A stretch of DNA of 64,000 bases from sequence record PQ351811. One strand, written 5' to 3'. The notes beneath the pieces were generated by a model, which saw only the letters and a list, made by a program, of their open reading frames with translations, ran no database searches and was not told the DNA's origin. Position 1 is the first letter of the stretch; each line of letters begins with the position of its first letter. The stretch comes from Shigella phage SSG23. This document shows positions 1 to 11,424 of this stretch, one piece after another. Position numbers and translations under genes: made by a program.

Positions 1-4
1 ATCT

Positions 5-115
5 ATGACTGAACAGGAACGAATGATGTTGATAGGTGGACCGGAGTTCACTAAATTTGATGCAATTCTTATTGCGTTGGGGTTTCTTATGATCTGTTGT
101 ATGGTGGCGCTATGA
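5..115 (+). CDS. small hydrophobic protein (36 aa)
   Basis: ATG at 5, stop TGA 113-115 overlapping next ATG (ATGA coupling); hydrophobic C-terminus; below track size cutoff. Confidence 0.3.
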   Translation: MTEQERMMLIGGPEFTKFDAILIALGFLMICCMVAL

Positions 116-333
116 GTAGCATAAAATATTTTGCTTTCTTGTGTTTTATGATGTTCTTTACATTCTTAGCATGTGTATTCTTTACATGGCTTGCTCATGT
201 TGATAATGCAACCGGACCGTTTTACTTCTTTTGTGTGCTGTCGGTGTTGACTGGTGCTCTTGTTACGTGGATGATTCGAGATTGTTACGGAATGTATAAG
301 TTTGAAAAGACTCGACCGAAATGGGGCAAATGA
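112..333 (+). CDS. small membrane protein
   Basis: Track ORF 97..333, ATG at 112; strongly hydrophobic (2 predicted TM segments). Confidence 0.45.
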   Translation: MSSIKYFAFLCFMMFFTFLACVFFTWLAHVDNATGPFYFFCVLSVLTGALVTWMIRDCYGMYKFEKTRPKWGK

Positions 334-515
334 TGAAACTATTTGCGTGGCTAATTATTTTAAATGTAATTATTAAGACTGTTCTCGCTGGTTTACTGAT
401 GATACATAGCACGGAACCAGAAGAAGCATTAACGTATTGTGTTGCTTATGTGTTGGGATTCTTGCTTACTGCGTGGATGTGTGATGAATATCGAAGAATT
501 GAGGTAAAACCATGA
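321..515 (+). CDS. small membrane protein
   Basis: Track ORF; hydrophobic; start overlaps upstream stop. Confidence 0.45.
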   Translation: MGQMMKLFAWLIILNVIIKTVLAGLLMIHSTEPEEALTYCVAYVLGFLLTAWMCDEYRRIEVKP

Positions 516-730
516 AGATGACTTTTTATATCTTAGCAAGTATCATGCTTGTGATCTCTTCTGCACTATTTGCATTTCTTACCGTTTGGGGGATCTGCAC
601 TGATGCGAAGCCGTGGGATATCGTAGAAAACACTGTTATGTTTATTATCAGTCTCATGTGTCTGTTTGATGCATTTAACTCTATCAAAGAAGAAGATCAA
701 AAACGTCGCGAAAGAAAGCTATATAAATAA
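512..730 (+). CDS. small membrane protein
   Basis: Track ORF; ATGA overlap with upstream ORF; hydrophobic N-terminal two thirds. Confidence 0.5.
   Translation: MKMTFYILASIMLVISSALFAFLTVWGICTDAKPWDIVENTVMFIISLMCLFDAFNSIKEEDQKRRERKLYK
722..729 (+). promoter_or_regulatory. T4-late-type promoter motif TATAAATA
   Basis: Exact TATAAATA overlapping stop codon of ORF 512..730; gp55 late sigma gene is present in window. Confidence 0.4.
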
Positions 731-734
731 TAGT

Positions 735-906
735 GAACTAAAACAGCGCGGTTAGAATGATTTGGACGTCACCTAGCCGCATTTATTGCAGCGTATGGGG
801 TTAATCCGGTACGCTAAAGCATTCACTTGCTAGGCCGCTAGCAGGTTGGAGACAAGGAAGATTCGCTACCTTCCCTATAAGCCACTCTTCGGAGTGGCTT
901 TTTTAT
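735..906 (+). ncRNA. candidate structured noncoding RNA (about 170 nt)
   Basis: No ORF over 15 codons and no SD; three internal hairpins (e.g. TGCTAG-GCCG-CTAGCA); bounded by late-promoter motif and intrinsic terminator. Confidence 0.3.
880..906 (+). terminator. intrinsic terminator
   Basis: AGCCACTC-TTCG-GAGTGGCT stem-loop followed by TTTTTT. Confidence 0.65.
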
Positions 907-932
907 TGCCTAAAATTTTTTAAAAAAAGTTG

Positions 933-961
933 TTGACACCAAATCGTGCCTATAGCATAAT
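933..961 (+). promoter_or_regulatory. sigma70-consensus early promoter (PeSL-like cassette)
   Basis: TTGACA, 17-bp spacer, CATAAT; followed by conserved leader ACACCCATCGAAACGAAACAC and GGAG SD. Confidence 0.7.
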
Positions 962-1007
962 ACACCCATCGAAACGAAACACACTTTCTTAAACGGAGAA
1001 TCAAATT

Positions 1008-1193
1008 ATGGCACGTCGCATCACTAAAGCACTGAAAGCAGTAAGCAAAGAAAACGTAGTAGCTATTCTGGTAATCTGGGGTTATAACGAAGAATCCGCT
1101 AAACAGAAAGTTGAAGCGGGGTTTGAACTGGCAGTAAAAGCAATGCCGAATGATGACTCTGTAGGGCTGGCAAATTATATCGCATATTTCTGA
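1008..1193 (+). CDS. hypothetical early protein
   Basis: Track ORF directly downstream of promoter and GGAGAATCAAATTATG initiation region. Confidence 0.55.
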   Translation: MARRITKALKAVSKENVVAILVIWGYNEESAKQKVEAGFELAVKAMPNDDSVGLANYIAYF

Positions 1194-1201
1194 TAAAAGT
1201 G

Positions 1202-1231
1202 TTGACAGGGGGAGGATAACTCCCCTACAAT
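1202..1231 (+). promoter_or_regulatory. sigma70-like early promoter
   Basis: TTGACA then inverted repeat GGGGAG..CTCCCC in spacer then TACAAT; conserved leader CATCAACGAAACGGGAGAATCAAAATG. Confidence 0.6.
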
Positions 1232-1260
1232 ACAACCATCAACGAAACGGGAGAATCAAA

Positions 1261-1482
1261 ATGATCAACTTTAAAGAAGCAGCGAAAGAAATTATCGACT
1301 TTGAGCGCGAATTGTTTGAAATGGAACCAAATATGAGCAAACTGGAACTGGCTAACCAGATCTGGTACTCTAAAATGAATCCATCTGATCGCCTAGAAGT
1401 TATGAACATTGTAGGCGAAGTGAAAGGTAGTGCACTAATGAAACTCCGCGCTTGCCACGCTTACATCGCTGATCAACTGTAA
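1261..1482 (+). CDS. hypothetical early protein
   Basis: Track ORF after promoter with GGAG SD. Confidence 0.55.
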   Translation: MINFKEAAKEIIDFERELFEMEPNMSKLELANQIWYSKMNPSDRLEVMNIVGEVKGSALMKLRACHAYIADQL

Positions 1483-1493
1483 GAGGGTATATT

Positions 1494-1682
1494 ATGGGGG
1501 AGAAACCATTAGTACAACTAAGAGTACGCTATAACCAGATTTTAGCATTACTTAAGGCTGAGGGTGTAGATCCATCGGACCGCGAGGCTGTAAAAGCGTG
1601 TCTATCTGATACGGTACAACCAAAACAAAACTATGCTTGTTATATGTACTTTCAAAATCGATTGAATAACGTTAAGTGTTGA
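1494..1682 (+). CDS. hypothetical protein
   Basis: Track ORF; SD GAGGG upstream; tiles with neighbours. Confidence 0.5.
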   Translation: MGEKPLVQLRVRYNQILALLKAEGVDPSDREAVKACLSDTVQPKQNYACYMYFQNRLNNVKC

Positions 1683-1691
1683 GGTGATACT

Positions 1692-1880
1692 ATGGAAGAC
1701 AAAATTGAACAATTACGCGAATCCGCTAAAGAGCATGGTATGAGCGAAGAGTTTGTAGAATGGTTTATTTCTAAAAAGGCTGATTCCTGCGGGTGCTTTA
1801 ACTTCATTACTATGTCCATTATGTGGGAAGGTTGGAAAGGTGCAGTAGAAACTGCTCTAGAAATTATGAAAAAAGACTAA
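1692..1880 (+). CDS. hypothetical protein
   Basis: Track ORF; SD GAGGTG upstream. Confidence 0.5.
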   Translation: MEDKIEQLRESAKEHGMSEEFVEWFISKKADSCGCFNFITMSIMWEGWKGAVETALEIMKKD

Positions 1881-1887
1881 AAAAGTT

Positions 1888-1916
1888 GTTGACAATGGGT
1901 CGGGTGTATAGCATAA
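1888..1916 (+). promoter_or_regulatory. sigma70-consensus early promoter (PeSL-like cassette)
   Basis: TTGACA-17-CATAAT; 8-bp inverted repeat GGGTGTAT/ATACACCC straddling -10; conserved leader. Confidence 0.7.
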
Positions 1917-1959
1917 TACACCCATCGAAACGAAACACGAACTACTAAGGAGTATCAAA

Positions 1960-2286
1960 ATGAAACCAGTATCTGTTAAAGTTATCTTCTCTGAATCTTC
2001 TGTATTCGCTAACGCAAACGAAGTATTCCACTTCGAAGACTTCGAGCGTAAAGCACTGGACGCGGCAGCAAAAGCCTATGAAAGCGAATATGACAAAACT
2101 CAAATCGAGGTTACATTCGAAGACGGCACTACTTACGCTTGCCGCCTTGACCTGGGTGATCGTCTGTCTGGCTTCCGTCACCATGTAGAGAAGACAATCG
2201 CTTTCTCTAAAACCGAAAAAGGAAAACACTACTTTTCTGTATTCGGTACTGAAAATCTGGATTTCTTGAAAACGGTTTCTTTCTAA
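1960..2286 (+). CDS. hypothetical early protein
   Basis: Track ORF after promoter and AAGGAG SD. Confidence 0.6.
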   Translation: MKPVSVKVIFSESSVFANANEVFHFEDFERKALDAAAKAYESEYDKTQIEVTFEDGTTYACRLDLGDRLSGFRHHVEKTIAFSKTEKGKHYFSVFGTENLDFLKTVSF

Positions 2287-2294
2287 GGTATATT

Positions 2295-2477
2295 ATGAAA
2301 AAGATTAATTGGTTAGCGAACATAGGCGCGGTATGCGCCTTTAACATCCTCGGATGGATAATGTTACATTTTGATGATCGCGTTTCAAAATGTGAAGGTG
2401 GATTGATTCTAGGATCTGCTAGTGTTTTCATTATGCTGTATGCAATTATAGTTGACTTAAACCGCGAGGATTGTTAA
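2295..2477 (+). CDS. small membrane protein
   Basis: Track ORF; hydrophobic; SD AAGG upstream. Confidence 0.5.
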   Translation: MKKINWLANIGAVCAFNILGWIMLHFDDRVSKCEGGLILGSASVFIMLYAIIVDLNREDC

Positions 2478-2478
2478 T

Positions 2479-2679
2479 ATGAAAATTAATAATAGTGCCA
2501 TCAGATTTTCGAGCGTATATGCTAGTTTCATTGCGCTGGTCTGTATGTTTGTTTTTATTCCTGTTGTACTTCTTGGATATTGTGATATTGAAGTAGCATT
2601 GATTGCTGGGATCTATATGTGGGTTGCGGTCTTTGTTCTTTCAATTGTAATGTGCAAGATTATTGACTATACTGATTAA
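2479..2679 (+). CDS. small membrane protein
   Basis: Track ORF; two hydrophobic segments. Confidence 0.5.
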   Translation: MKINNSAIRFSSVYASFIALVCMFVFIPVVLLGYCDIEVALIAGIYMWVAVFVLSIVMCKIIDYTD

Positions 2680-2697
2680 CTGTGTGAGGATTATATT

Positions 2698-3018
2698 ATG
2701 AGCAAACTGTTTGAAACTCCGCGCGAAATTCTGATTGATAAACTGAAAGAGCGTGGTTTTAAGATCAAAGATGCAACCAAATACAGCAGAATTGATGAAA
2801 TTAAGTTGCATTCTCTTGATGAACTGGTAGAATATGTTGCGGCAGTGGCTGATCCGCAGTTTGATGTTATTGTAGGTGACGTTGAATATCTCGATAATGT
2901 ATATTCATTCTTCACTTATGGTAAAATTGTGTCTGTGAAAATTTCATTCTGTGAAAATGTGGAGGTACTTGCTAGTGAACCAGAAGAACCAACTAACAAC
3001 GGTCCTACGGCAGCGTAA
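2698..3018 (+). CDS. hypothetical protein
   Basis: Track ORF preceded by GAGGATTATATTATG initiation cassette. Confidence 0.55.
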   Translation: MSKLFETPREILIDKLKERGFKIKDATKYSRIDEIKLHSLDELVEYVAAVADPQFDVIVGDVEYLDNVYSFFTYGKIVSVKISFCENVEVLASEPEEPTNNGPTAA

Positions 3019-4315: not shown

Positions 4316-4705
4316 ATGTTTAAATTATCTAAAAGAAGCAAAGATCGGCTTGTTGGCGTACATCCAGACCTGGTAAAAGTCGTTCATCGTGCATTAGAAC
4401 TGACTCCGGTCGATTTTGGTATTACGGAAGGTGTGCGTAGTCTAGAAACGCAAAAGAAATATGTTGCGGAAGGTAAATCTAAGACTATGAAATCTCGTCA
4501 TCTTCACGGTTTCGCGGTTGACGTTGTAGCGTATCCTAAAGATAAGGATACATGGAACATGAAATATTACCGCATGATCGCTGATGCATTTAAACAAGCT
4601 GGTCGAGAATTGGGTGTTCCTGTTGAATGGGGTGGAGATTGGACCAGTTTCAAAGATGGTCCTCATCTACAATTGCCACACAGCAAATACCCAGATCCAA
4701 AATAA
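4316..4705 (+). CDS. peptidase M15-type endolysin (L-alanyl-D-glutamate peptidase / VanY-like)
   Basis: SRHLHGFAVDV (SxHxxGxAxD zinc motif) and C-terminal DGPHLQL His; SD AAAGGGGGTG; sits where T4 has lysozyme e. Confidence 0.8.
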   Translation: MFKLSKRSKDRLVGVHPDLVKVVHRALELTPVDFGITEGVRSLETQKKYVAEGKSKTMKSRHLHGFAVDVVAYPKDKDTWNMKYYRMIADAFKQAGRELGVPVEWGGDWTSFKDGPHLQLPHSKYPDPK

Positions 4706-7450: not shown

Positions 7451-7873
7451 ATGGAAACAATTAATGTACATGTTCGTCGTAGCAAGCTGCGTCGATTCTT
7501 CGAAACTGAAATGCGCAAAACTAATGCACAGATCAAAGAAAAGTGCTTGAATGATGGTTACGGTGAGTATATTTTCATTCGCTTTAGTCCGCATATGATC
7601 GACCGTCTAACCGATCGTCATATCGATGAACATAAGACAATGGAACTATTCAATAAGGTAGAAACTCGTTTACCTGAGATCTTCAAGTTCTTGAAAATGG
7701 AAGACCGACCTAACCGACTAGAAATCACTGACGGTAACATGTGGATCGGGATGACAGTAGATCTAATCGAAGACGGTAAACCGTATTACGGGCTATGCTG
7801 CCGAATGATTATAGAGAATCCAAAGCGACTGGCGGGTAAAATGTCGGCGGTTGTTTTGAAAGTGGACCAATAA
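7451..7873 (+). CDS. regB: RegB-like site-specific endoribonuclease
   Basis: METINVHVRRSKLRRFFE..RLEITDGNMWIGMTV..CRMIIENPKRLAGK matches remembered T4 RegB; SD AAGGAG. Confidence 0.75.
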   Translation: METINVHVRRSKLRRFFETEMRKTNAQIKEKCLNDGYGEYIFIRFSPHMIDRLTDRHIDEHKTMELFNKVETRLPEIFKFLKMEDRPNRLEITDGNMWIGMTVDLIEDGKPYYGLCCRMIIENPKRLAGKMSAVVLKVDQ

Positions 7874-10668: not shown

Positions 10669-10695
10669 GAGTTAATCATAAATAAAGCCCCAGAT

Positions 10696-10703
10696 TATAA
10701 ATA
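10696..10703 (+). promoter_or_regulatory. T4-late-type promoter motif TATAAATA
   Basis: Exact TATAAATA 34 nt upstream of rI-like ORF, inside loop of CCCCAGATT/AATCTGGGG inverted repeat. Confidence 0.5.
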
Positions 10704-10736
10704 TAACTGAATATTTTCAATCTGGGGGAATGACTT

Positions 10737-11039
10737 ATGTCATTTATTCGTAAAACTCTAACAGCGGCAATATGCTTGACTGCGGTCGGAAGTGTCAGTG
10801 CTGATCAATATGATCCAACTGGTGACTTTACTGATTATTTCGACGGTGCAATGATAGTATATGTAAACAAAATATCTCCTTCCATTGAAACCAGCCAGAA
10901 ATTTCATGCCCATATTATGAAGATGTATGCTCGTAGTAAATGTATGGATTCTAAGCAGTGTTTTATTATGGGGGAATATGCCGCAAAACAATTTGTTATG
11001 TTGTATAATGTGGAGAATCGAGAACATGAAATTCAGTGA
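10737..11039 (+). CDS. rI: RI-like periplasmic antiholin
   Basis: Signal/anchor sequence; C-terminal Y..S.C.DS.QC...GEYAAKQF resembles remembered T4 RI; adjacent to tk as in T4. Confidence 0.6.
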   Translation: MSFIRKTLTAAICLTAVGSVSADQYDPTGDFTDYFDGAMIVYVNKISPSIETSQKFHAHIMKMYARSKCMDSKQCFIMGEYAAKQFVMLYNVENREHEIQ

Positions 11040-11424
11040 TTTTCGAAAGACGTCCGAAGAGGGGAAAGCTAATAAAGTTGACCGCTTTATCGGTGAATGT
11101 CTGATGAGTGTTACTTATATGCATTCTGCGCATTTTGGGGTGACTGGTCCAGGATCTTATGCAAAACATAAGGCTCTAGAAGAGTTCTATCTTGAAATGC
11201 AAGAATTGGTTGATAATTTCACTGAAACCAATATTGGGATCACTGGTCGTTATCAACCAACGTTGGTCGTCCGCAAGGAGATTAGCGAAATTGCCTATTT
11301 GCAAGAGTTAACGCAAATGGCTAGTGAGATTTATAATGATGTTGATAGCTCGTTACAGAGCGTTTTAGATGATATCAAAGTTCTATGCTTTAAAACAATT
11401 TATAAACTCACTCGACTGGCTTAA
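11026..11424 (+). CDS. hypothetical protein
   Basis: Track ORF 10927..11424, ATG 11026 after GGAGAATC SD. Confidence 0.5.
   Translation: MKFSDFRKTSEEGKANKVDRFIGECLMSVTYMHSAHFGVTGPGSYAKHKALEEFYLEMQELVDNFTETNIGITGRYQPTLVVRKEISEIAYLQELTQMASEIYNDVDSSLQSVLDDIKVLCFKTIYKLTRLA

Follow-up and report, generated by a model that had tools for sequence, protein, structure and literature searches.

The closest described counterparts of the element reported here are two stable RNAs of T4. The interval between T4 genes 57B and e holds ipI, eight tRNA genes, segB, rnaD and rnaC, followed by a terminator and e. RNAC (species 1, 139 nt) and RNAD (species 2, 119 nt) are small, structured and noncoding, are encoded on the early-gene strand just upstream of this terminator, and have been classed as late RNAs whose function is unexplained (PMC9697503; PMC3014915). 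Cut from a tRNA precursor, RNAC includes an acceptor-like stem and a canonical T-arm. T4-type phages are much studied, yet no trans-acting small RNA of theirs has been functionally characterised, and RNAC and RNAD have remained a puzzle for decades (PMC3014915). A second described system, the PeSL (promoter-early stem-loop) cassette, was defined in RB49 and phi1 (Arbiol et al. 2010, PMC2839356); in its normal form, the upstream stop codon lies inside the AT-rich tract next to the promoter (PMC2839356). The late-promoter motif of these phages and its spacing, with the motif at -13 to -6, are taken as defined previously (Nolan 2006, PMC1524935). Here, we describe a locus at the position of the T4 stable RNAs in a phage of another genus that, judged from sequence, most likely encodes an undescribed small phage RNA.

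The stretch of DNA that we analysed, referred to as the window, is 64,000 nt of Shigella phage SSG23 (PQ351811). By megablast, its first 3 kb are 100% identical to Shigella phage SFHK24 and 94-96% identical to 57 other records, all of them Krischvirus (RB49, phi1, JSE, GEC-3S and others); on this sequence identity, the window is Krischvirus, that is, DNA of an RB49-like T4-type phage. Its + strand is the early-gene strand and carries nearly all annotated CDSs of the first 50 kb. In annotated relatives, the upstream gene order is 57B, a terminator, sigma70 promoters, ORF125, dmd and five small ORFs, the last of which is ORF 512-730; in RB49, the locus reads 57B, ORF125, dmd, ORF118, the element and the endolysin gene. 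On its downstream side, the element is separated by many small ORFs from the endolysin gene (4316-4705). The site thus falls between 57B and the endolysin gene, where T4-like phages carry tRNA and stable-RNA genes, as an earlier note on this DNA had supposed. The protein of ORF 512-730 was found in Krischvirus only (synteny-anchor search), while that of the downstream ORF is common to T1-like siphoviruses, which are without the element. The 277-nt gap between these two ORFs is the longest of the first 50 kb, the next real gap being about 107 nt, and the element within it has a G+C content of 47% versus 38-40% in its flanks. The features of the locus are collected in Table 1.

Table 1. Features of the element and its immediate surroundings, in window coordinates
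Feature	Position	Strand	Remarks
ORF, 72 aa, membrane-like	512-730	+	last ORF of the early dmd operon; context, outside the RNA
Exact T4-type late-promoter motif TATAAATA	722-729	+	T4 positions -13 to -6
Unpaired 5' leader, 13 nt, GAACUAAAACAGC, from the predicted late start G735	735-747	+	start predicted from T4 spacing
Hairpin 1	748-780	+	8-bp stem, internal loop, 4-bp stem, invariant loop UUGGAC
AU-rich single-stranded linker AUUUAUUGC	781-789	+	position 788 varies
Hairpin 2	790-815	+	7-bp stem 790-796/809-815, drifting apex 797-808
Hairpin 3	825-846	+	invariant 9-bp stem, loop GCCG
Single-stranded linker UGGAGACAA	847-855	+	contains GGAG; invariant bar C853->U in one genome
Hairpin 4	856-874	+	GGAAG/CUUCC stem, invariant 9-nt loop AUUCGCUAC
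Intrinsic terminator	879-906	+	9-bp stem, UUCG loop, U6; stem-loop of a PeSL cassette
AT-rich tract and sigma70 early promoter (TTGACA at 933, CATAAT ending 961)	907-961	+	downstream boundary, outside the RNA

The 3' boundary of the element is a terminator. The claim of a strong intrinsic terminator ending at 906 is borne out by a perfect 9-bp UUCG hairpin, which is annotated in the relatives GEC-3S, Makalu_001 and G37-3 and has a TransTerm score of 100 in RB49 (Nolan 2006 supplement, PMC1524935). Together with what follows it, this hairpin has the composition of a PeSL cassette: positions 879-961 comprise a stem-loop, an AT-rich tract and a sigma70 promoter, lie between small ORFs of the hyperplastic region, and provide the promoter that serves the next gene, ORF 1008-1193. 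Unlike in a regular PeSL, however, 148 nt of unique, conserved and structured sequence here part the upstream stop codon from the stem-loop. This insert, 731-878, is single-copy, with no second copy of the element within the window, and lies outside the repeated cassette. The PeSL cassette accounts for the terminator but not for 731-878, and it is the 148-nt insert that is the anomaly.

We found little in the insert that could be translated. Across 731-878, the + strand has no ORF of at least 25 aa except a TTG-started frame at 846-923. Short frames (at least 12 aa) differ in length among relatives, from 15 to >51 aa, through indels of 1-2 nt; the frame from the ATG at 757, for instance, spans 15, 19, 24 or >51 aa depending on the genome. 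No Shine-Dalgarno sequence precedes any short frame in the element in any of the relatives. With frame lengths unconserved and no Shine-Dalgarno sequence, the reading as a small ORF was rejected, and the earlier note's view of about 170 nt free of plausible ORFs and ribosome-binding sites stands. A few records annotate CDSs here, either antisense or spanning the terminator and the promoter, and these are unconserved.

The element also falls outside the described RNA families. ARAGORN finds 0 tRNA or tmRNA genes in the 64-kb window, a null that fits the reported lack of tRNA genes in RB49 (Nolan 2006, PMC1524935), and the Rfam tRNA model has no match at E <= 10 in positions 1-3000, in keeping with the observation, made beforehand, that the region does not fold into a tRNA cloverleaf. 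A tRNA-like RNA was likewise rejected, there being no tRNA-like arm and the T-loop-like GGGGUUAAUCC being the single hypervariable spot of the element. A covariance-model search of Rfam had been proposed as a check; at E <= 10, none of the Rfam 15 families reached its gathering threshold. The best sub-threshold scores, for EF3314_EF3315 (25.7 bits versus 100 needed) and RNAI (22.8 versus 47), reflect hairpins of a generic sort and the terminator. The records leave the element unannotated.

Several lines of evidence point to a structure formed on the sense strand. The RNA at 735-878 folds on the + strand with -49.1 kcal/mol (z = -3.19; equalled by 1 of 200 shuffles), and its minimum-free-energy structure coincides with the centroid, whereas the complement strand gives z = -1.50 and an ill-defined ensemble. 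RNAalifold, run on 22 sequences, returned the same five helices as the single-sequence fold. Both recovered the three hairpins previously read from the letters, namely GCGTA/TACGC at 792-796/810-814, TGCTAG-GCCG-CTAGCA at 828-843 and GGAAG/CTTCC at 856-860/870-874. A fourth hairpin, at 748-780, comes in addition to those three. Across 19 distinct sequences, standard pairs occupy 98% of pair cells, compared with 28-44% when the partners are slid. Four one-sided stem changes all lead to G.U and would be A.C on the other strand; in phage Brandy, A775->G in hairpin 1 retains a U.G pair. The stem of hairpin 2 shows two wobble changes and the sole compensatory change, G791-C814 to A-U, which occurs in an IMG/VR contig.

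In the analysis of compensatory mutations, another check that had been proposed, pairing is kept throughout one compensatory and four wobble changes, but 43 of the 50 pairs never vary and the lone compensatory pair is equalled by 29 of 500 shuffles. Two sets of pairs were rejected. The outer pairs 787-789/819-821 are unsupported because position 788 varies, and uncompensated changes in the alignment contradict them; the base of hairpin 3 in the single-sequence fold, 822-824/848-850, is unsupported by the alignment, its pair 824-848 being contradicted by uncompensated changes. Overall, the predicted structure is consistent with the data, which favour the sense strand, while covariation is near-powerless here and amounts to no proof.

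Conservation was measured in an alignment of 17 Krischvirus genomes over about 3.2 kb. Excluding the apex of hairpin 2 (796-807), region 731-878 has a pi of 0.010, with 6 of 136 columns varying (4.4%), figures to be read in light of carriers that are at least 94% identical, so that substitutions are few and columns are not independent. At third codon positions of the flanking ORFs, 22-26% of columns vary; in the two adjoining ORFs, the counts are 22/72 and 10/61 (Fisher p = 4e-7 and 0.009, respectively, versus the element). For second codon positions, the share of variable columns is 6.5-6.9%, not significantly different from that of the element (p = 0.43). Variable columns far below those of third codon positions indicate purifying selection on the element, which a mere passive spacer would not be under. 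Diversity changes from patch to patch over the region and is low also in the adjoining ORF 1008-1193.

The distribution of the changes within the element is uneven. In the leader, one position varies, 743/744 (G, A or gap). Loops and linkers are as invariant as stems, and substitutions cluster in the apex of hairpin 2, which has 8 alleles, indels and a nucleotide diversity of 0.22. Fixed stems, loops and linkers around one drifting apex form the pattern expected of a functional RNA with a solvent-exposed loop.

All carriers of the element belong to Krischvirus: 58 GenBank records, two IMG/VR contigs, obtained in two scans, and two metagenome contigs, the real matches among 49 loci of a metagenome scan whose other 47 are chance matches. 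By blastn, the element was not found outside Krischvirus among 50,697 phage records, three other phage records sharing just 42 nt of the AT-rich promoter tract, and it had no match in 5,426 E. coli genomes and PLSDB plasmids. Searches of phage, IMG/VR and metagenome sequences yielded no diverged homologues, and the covariation analysis is underpowered for this reason. The prediction of a new, genus-specific structured RNA is, on these sequence comparisons, a credible one.

The 5' boundary of a discrete transcript would be set by the late-promoter motif. An exact copy of TATAAATA had been noted at 722-729, and it is indeed there on the + strand, overlapping the codons TAT AAA TAA that close ORF 512-730. 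As a bare 8-mer, the motif is unremarkable, with 2 occurrences in the window versus 5.4 expected. Krischvirus DNA totalling 114 kb has 11 exact copies. Every one is on the gene strand, leaving 0 antisense versus about 4.8 expected (P(0) of about 0.008), and 9 precede a start codon by 28-45 nt. The 50-kb late region of RB49 has 9 such copies, each on the late-gene strand and eight of them 28-45 nt before the start codons of genes 53, 9, 18, 22, 23, 24, uvsW and 51. The RB49 gene 21/22 junction shows an identical TAT AAA TAA overlap, the stop codon at the gene 17/18 junction likewise lies inside TATAAATA, and the bases ATA that follow the motif at 722-729 match the promoters of RB49 genes 9 and 22. 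From these counts, it seems that the exact motif is allowed to persist only at sites that use it, and the lack of antisense copies together with the placement at gene starts raises the prior for late firing at 722-729. A late start at G735, producing an RNA of about 170 nt, is plausible from the T4 spacing.

In other respects, the site stands apart from its counterparts. Late promoters at or inside gene ends, such as those of e, soc, 49 and I-TevI in T4 and of 18 and 22 in Krischvirus, likewise overlap the end of a gene, but they have a start codon within 28-45 nt, whereas 722-729 is followed by 170 nt of noncoding RNA and a terminator. The next start codon is 286 nt on, past the terminator and the early promoter, so that the usual placement, 28-45 nt upstream of a late-expressed ORF, does not apply. 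Among the 17 late promoters that a published HMM-based list gives for RB49 (Nolan 2006), the site does not appear. TATAAATA is kept in 21 of 22 sequences, a conservation confounded by its overlap with codons. The exception is the metagenome contig L094, in which a 14-nt deletion removes the motif and the stop codon, the ORF ending at a new TGA, and leaves the element intact; either the late promoter is dispensable in at least one lineage or the L094 assembly is faulty.

Set against T4 RNAC and RNAD, the Krischvirus element shares the small size, the structure, the noncoding character, the early-gene strand and the place between 57B and the endolysin gene, next to a terminator. Unlike them, it follows a protein-coding operon and has a late-promoter motif of its own, and it is without the tRNA-like arm seen in RNAC. 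Krischviruses also differ from T4 in having no tRNA genes whatsoever (ARAGORN; Nolan 2006, PMC1524935). Local alignment of the element to the T4 rnaC/rnaD region scores 16 versus a shuffle mean of 17.6, and a covariance model of the element, R2, found only the element itself at E <= 10 in 259 kb that included 24 T-even-type loci. Homology to RNAC or RNAD was not supported, the alignment and R2 giving no detectable similarity in sequence or structure. In place, and probably in timing, the element is a counterpart of RNAC and RNAD, though not a detectable homologue.

The reading that we prefer, if tentatively, is a structured noncoding RNA of about 170 nt (735-906) that would serve both as the tail of an early operon and as a discrete late transcript, recognised in a sequence-specific manner by a protein or RNA partner. 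Early in infection, going by the annotated promoters and terminators, the transcript of the sigma70-driven dmd operon ends in this RNA. At late times, initiation by gp55-RNA polymerase at TATAAATA, with +1 near G735, and termination near 904 would release a discrete small RNA. The partner could recognise this RNA by protein binding or by base-pairing. Because loops and linkers are as invariant as stems, sequence-specific recognition is likelier than a mere block to exonucleases. The broader statement, that the element is a selected sense-strand RNA of some kind, is one that we hold to be quite probable. The earlier note's suggestion of a phage sRNA expressed late survives in part: the noncoding character, the sense-strand structure, the purifying selection and the real terminator all agree with it, while the late expression is weakened by the omission of the promoter from the RB49 list and by L094, which keeps the RNA without the motif. 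Since the terminator belongs to a PeSL cassette and the same sequence is also an early 3' end, a late sRNA pure and simple is just one of the two readings still in play.

The other, and the main rival, is a purely cis-acting 3' UTR, which we consider possible but on the unlikely side. Here, the hairpins and the terminator would govern the stability, the processing or the timing of decay of the early dmd-operon mRNA by blocking 3' exonucleases or by offering RNase E/RegB sites (AUUUAUU, GGAG); TATAAATA would be incidental to the Tyr-Lys-stop codons, and a separate RNA would have no function. The position directly after the last ORF of the operon, with sigma70 promoters upstream and a terminator downstream, is what such a 3' UTR would have, and the window contains a regB-like endoribonuclease gene (7451-7873) to go with the GGAG in the single-stranded linker. 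The retention of the element in L094 without the motif and the absence of 722-729 from the published list of late promoters speak for it as well, as does a search for trans targets, in which none of the 165 translation-initiation regions of the window showed complementarity beyond shuffled controls. However, other operon ends in the genome either lack a terminator or have one no more than about 10 nt from the stop codon, and the stop codon of a PeSL normally lies in the AT-rich tract (PMC2839356); because both do without one, a structured insert of 148 nt is unneeded for termination or stability. A block to exonucleases, moreover, would not call for loops and linkers that vary as little as the stems, and elsewhere exact TATAAATA is avoided at sites where it would be functionless.

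A more specific form of the late-RNA reading is a trans-acting regulatory or decoy RNA, made from the orphan gp55 late promoter and acting on a partner from host or phage via its invariant loops and leader, as a functional analogue of RNAC/RNAD; we regard this form as doubtful. Enterobacterial small RNAs of the Hfq-dependent type carry a terminator hairpin with a U-tail and an unpaired seed. The element resembles those that derive from 3' UTRs or end in a terminator in its length of about 170 nt, its unpaired 5' segment, its AU-rich linker beside a hairpin and its U6-tailed terminator. Like them, it could be produced by operon read-through or from an internal promoter at the end of an ORF. Were the trans-acting, gp55-driven reading true, the T4 superfamily would gain in the element its first small RNA open to functional study.

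A further possibility concerns origin and is compatible with function either as a late RNA or as a 3' UTR. Positions 822-906 might be a diverged T-even tRNA-operon tail module, CACUUGCC..GCAGGUGGAACCCCGACAAGGU, left behind after the loss of tRNA genes, which we judge rather improbable. In T-even phages, this module consists of a hairpin ending ..GCAGGUG and then GGA-N-CCCGACAAGG, just before the terminator; it is 36 nt long and invariant and, in Tequatro-, Dhaka- and Gaprivervirus, stands ahead of the terminator that closes the operon, with a shorter form in Klebsiella phages. Positions 824-857 resemble it by eye, and the two share the 57B-e position and the order of parts: hairpin, linker, small hairpin, terminator. 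The words CACTTGC, CTAGCAGGT, GGA and GACAAGG occur in the same order in both, a pattern with 0 matches in 100 shuffles of the window but one that was drawn up after both sequences had been seen. Although the site is the top nhmmer match of the module in the 64-kb window, the E-values are just 0.43 and 1.2, and R1, a covariance model of the module, omits the site at E <= 10. Where all T-even-type copies have the invariant core CCCGACAAGG, the Krischvirus site reads just GACAAGG and lacks the CCC; in the opposite direction, R2 finds nothing in the T-even loci, and local alignment is no better than for shuffles. We take the resemblance to the T-even tail as a lead on origin that is still unproven. 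IMG/VR, scanned with relaxed patterns, gave mostly chance or coding matches, along with a few further T-even-type modules.

The least likely readings can be dealt with briefly. An attenuator, in which the structured region and terminator act as a conditional gate, riboswitch-like or protein-dependent, for late read-through into ORF 1008-1193, is very unlikely: a promoter, a structured domain of about 140 nt and a terminator ahead of genes do recall an aptamer and its expression platform, but no Rfam riboswitch matches, no fold offers a convincing alternative pairing with the terminator arms, the downstream gene has a strong promoter of its own, and the terminator hairpin, with its UUCG loop and U6, has a perfect 9-bp stem. 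Equally remote is a lack of RNA function, whether as a neutral relic that seems conserved through the youth of the genus or a recombination sweep, or as a site acting at the DNA level, each of which is unlikely: the identity of at least 94% among all carriers, the patchy diversity and the weak covariation would suit it, but 4.4% variable columns stand against 22-31% and 16% at third positions of adjoining ORFs, substitutions crowd one hairpin apex and spare the stems, the strand asymmetry in folding and the G.U-compatible changes point to RNA, and T4-type genomes are about 94% coding and shed useless DNA fast (Nolan 2006, PMC1524935).

The value of the element depends on which of the live readings holds. 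If it were only a 3' UTR stabiliser of the dmd operon, its interest would be local. As a candidate RNA, it could serve to probe the role of RNAs such as RNAC and RNAD: it is compact and easily deleted and probed, genus-wide yet unannotated, bounded by a late-promoter motif and a terminator at a site syntenic with RNAC/RNAD, and under apparent purifying selection comparable to what the second codon positions of its neighbours experience. Phage-therapy collections often include Krischviruses, so that strains and hosts are readily obtained. The window's other copy of TATAAATA, at 10696, resembles that at 722-729 in lying in the early region on the early-gene strand; it falls within a hairpin that sequesters the Shine-Dalgarno sequence of the ORF starting at 10737, an arrangement known for the late promoters of T4 e, soc, 49 and I-TevI (PMC3014915).

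In 114 kb of Krischvirus sequence (the window and the RB49 late region), no exact copy of the T4-type late-promoter motif, TATAAATA, lies antisense to the local genes, against about 4.8 expected, which suggests selection against spurious gp55 promoters. Besides the copy at 722-729 that precedes the non-coding element, the window holds a single further exact copy, at 10696-10703. This copy is enclosed by a hairpin, CCCCAGAT...ATCTGGGG, in which the Shine-Dalgarno region of the ORF that begins at ATG 10737 is base-paired, the same early-off, late-on arrangement as in T4 e, soc and 49. The N-terminus encoded by this ORF, MSFIRKTLTAAICLTAVGSVSA, resembles a signal peptide, and the reading frame continues into CDS 10927-11424. 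The start at 10927, taken from the SFHK24 annotation, probably lies some 190 nt too far downstream, and CDS 10758-10913, annotated antisense, is likely to be spurious.

An "orphan" exact copy was also found in RB49, at 94996, located after the gene 23 terminator; some 360 nt that carry no gene annotation separate it from ORF162, whose Shine-Dalgarno sequence is good. This stretch represents a long late 5' leader or else a further non-coding RNA candidate; R2, the covariance model of the Krischvirus element, gave no match at this locus.

The metagenome contig L094 carries an A-run longer by two A and a 14-nt deletion (tatataaataatag) that takes out the late-promoter motif together with the stop codon of the upstream ORF; a new TGA terminates the ORF, and the non-coding element is unaltered. 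The change is a natural variant or an assembly variant. In 19 sequences that otherwise hardly differ, hairpin 2 shows eight alleles of its apex (796-807), including indels of 1-2 nt, above two invariant G-C pairs; this diversity may reflect a simple lack of constraint or a specificity loop. In phage FL15, the terminator loop (window 888-891) reads CGAA, the reverse complement of the usual TTCG, on an unaltered stem, a hairpin-loop inversion that probably arose by template switching within the palindrome.

Several GenBank records place short "hypothetical proteins" across or antisense to the terminator and promoter (SFHK24 CDS0046, FL15, Delraymugoa and UPWr_E1). Their frame is not conserved, and they are probably annotation artefacts. 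The ORF upstream of the element is confined to Krischvirus, and the gene immediately downstream (1008-1193) encodes a 61-aa product that shares 72-80% identity with T1-like siphovirus proteins (vojen, tunus, ADB-2, pSf-1 and others); it exemplifies the cross-family module exchange described for genes flanked by promoter-early stem-loop (PeSL) cassettes.

In Tequatro-, Dhaka- and Gaprivervirus, the terminator closing the tRNA/rnaD/rnaC cluster lies just downstream of an unannotated, almost invariant tail module some 36 nt long, gaaCACTTGCC(t)tAGCAGGTGGAAccCCGACAAGGt, which occurs in 863 phage records, is better conserved than rnaC and had no match in Rfam. In some phages a CDS stop codon immediately precedes it. 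A shorter form with the core GCCTAGCAGGTGGA..CCCGACAAGG was found in Klebsiella phages and two IMG/VR contigs. In contig L033, a G+C-rich stretch of about 150 nt lies beyond the module, between the arms of a 12-nt inverted repeat, ttgataacagtg...cactgttatcaa; the stretch may be another structured RNA or the scar of a mobile element.

Coordinates of the features discussed (L-numbers are loci from other phages or contigs)
Feature	Locus	Position (strand)	Equivalent or source
Short "hypothetical protein" annotations near the element	window	903-1004 (-); 846-992 (+); ~812-955 (+) in relatives	
Second "orphan" exact motif	L196	30866-31368	RB49 94865-95367
Motif-loss variant	L094	3325-3345 (-)	metagenome contig MAVA01000028.1; window 717-734
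Hairpin with second exact motif and downstream ORF start	window	10689-10740	
Tail module	L021	2326-2406 (-)	T4 70825-70905
Tail module	L022	600-680	
Tail module	L024	600-664	
Tail module	L033	460-525 (-)	
Tail module	L062	500-552	
Tail module	L132		
G+C-rich stretch beyond tail module	L033	300-470 (-)	175.8-kb T4-like IMG/VR contig
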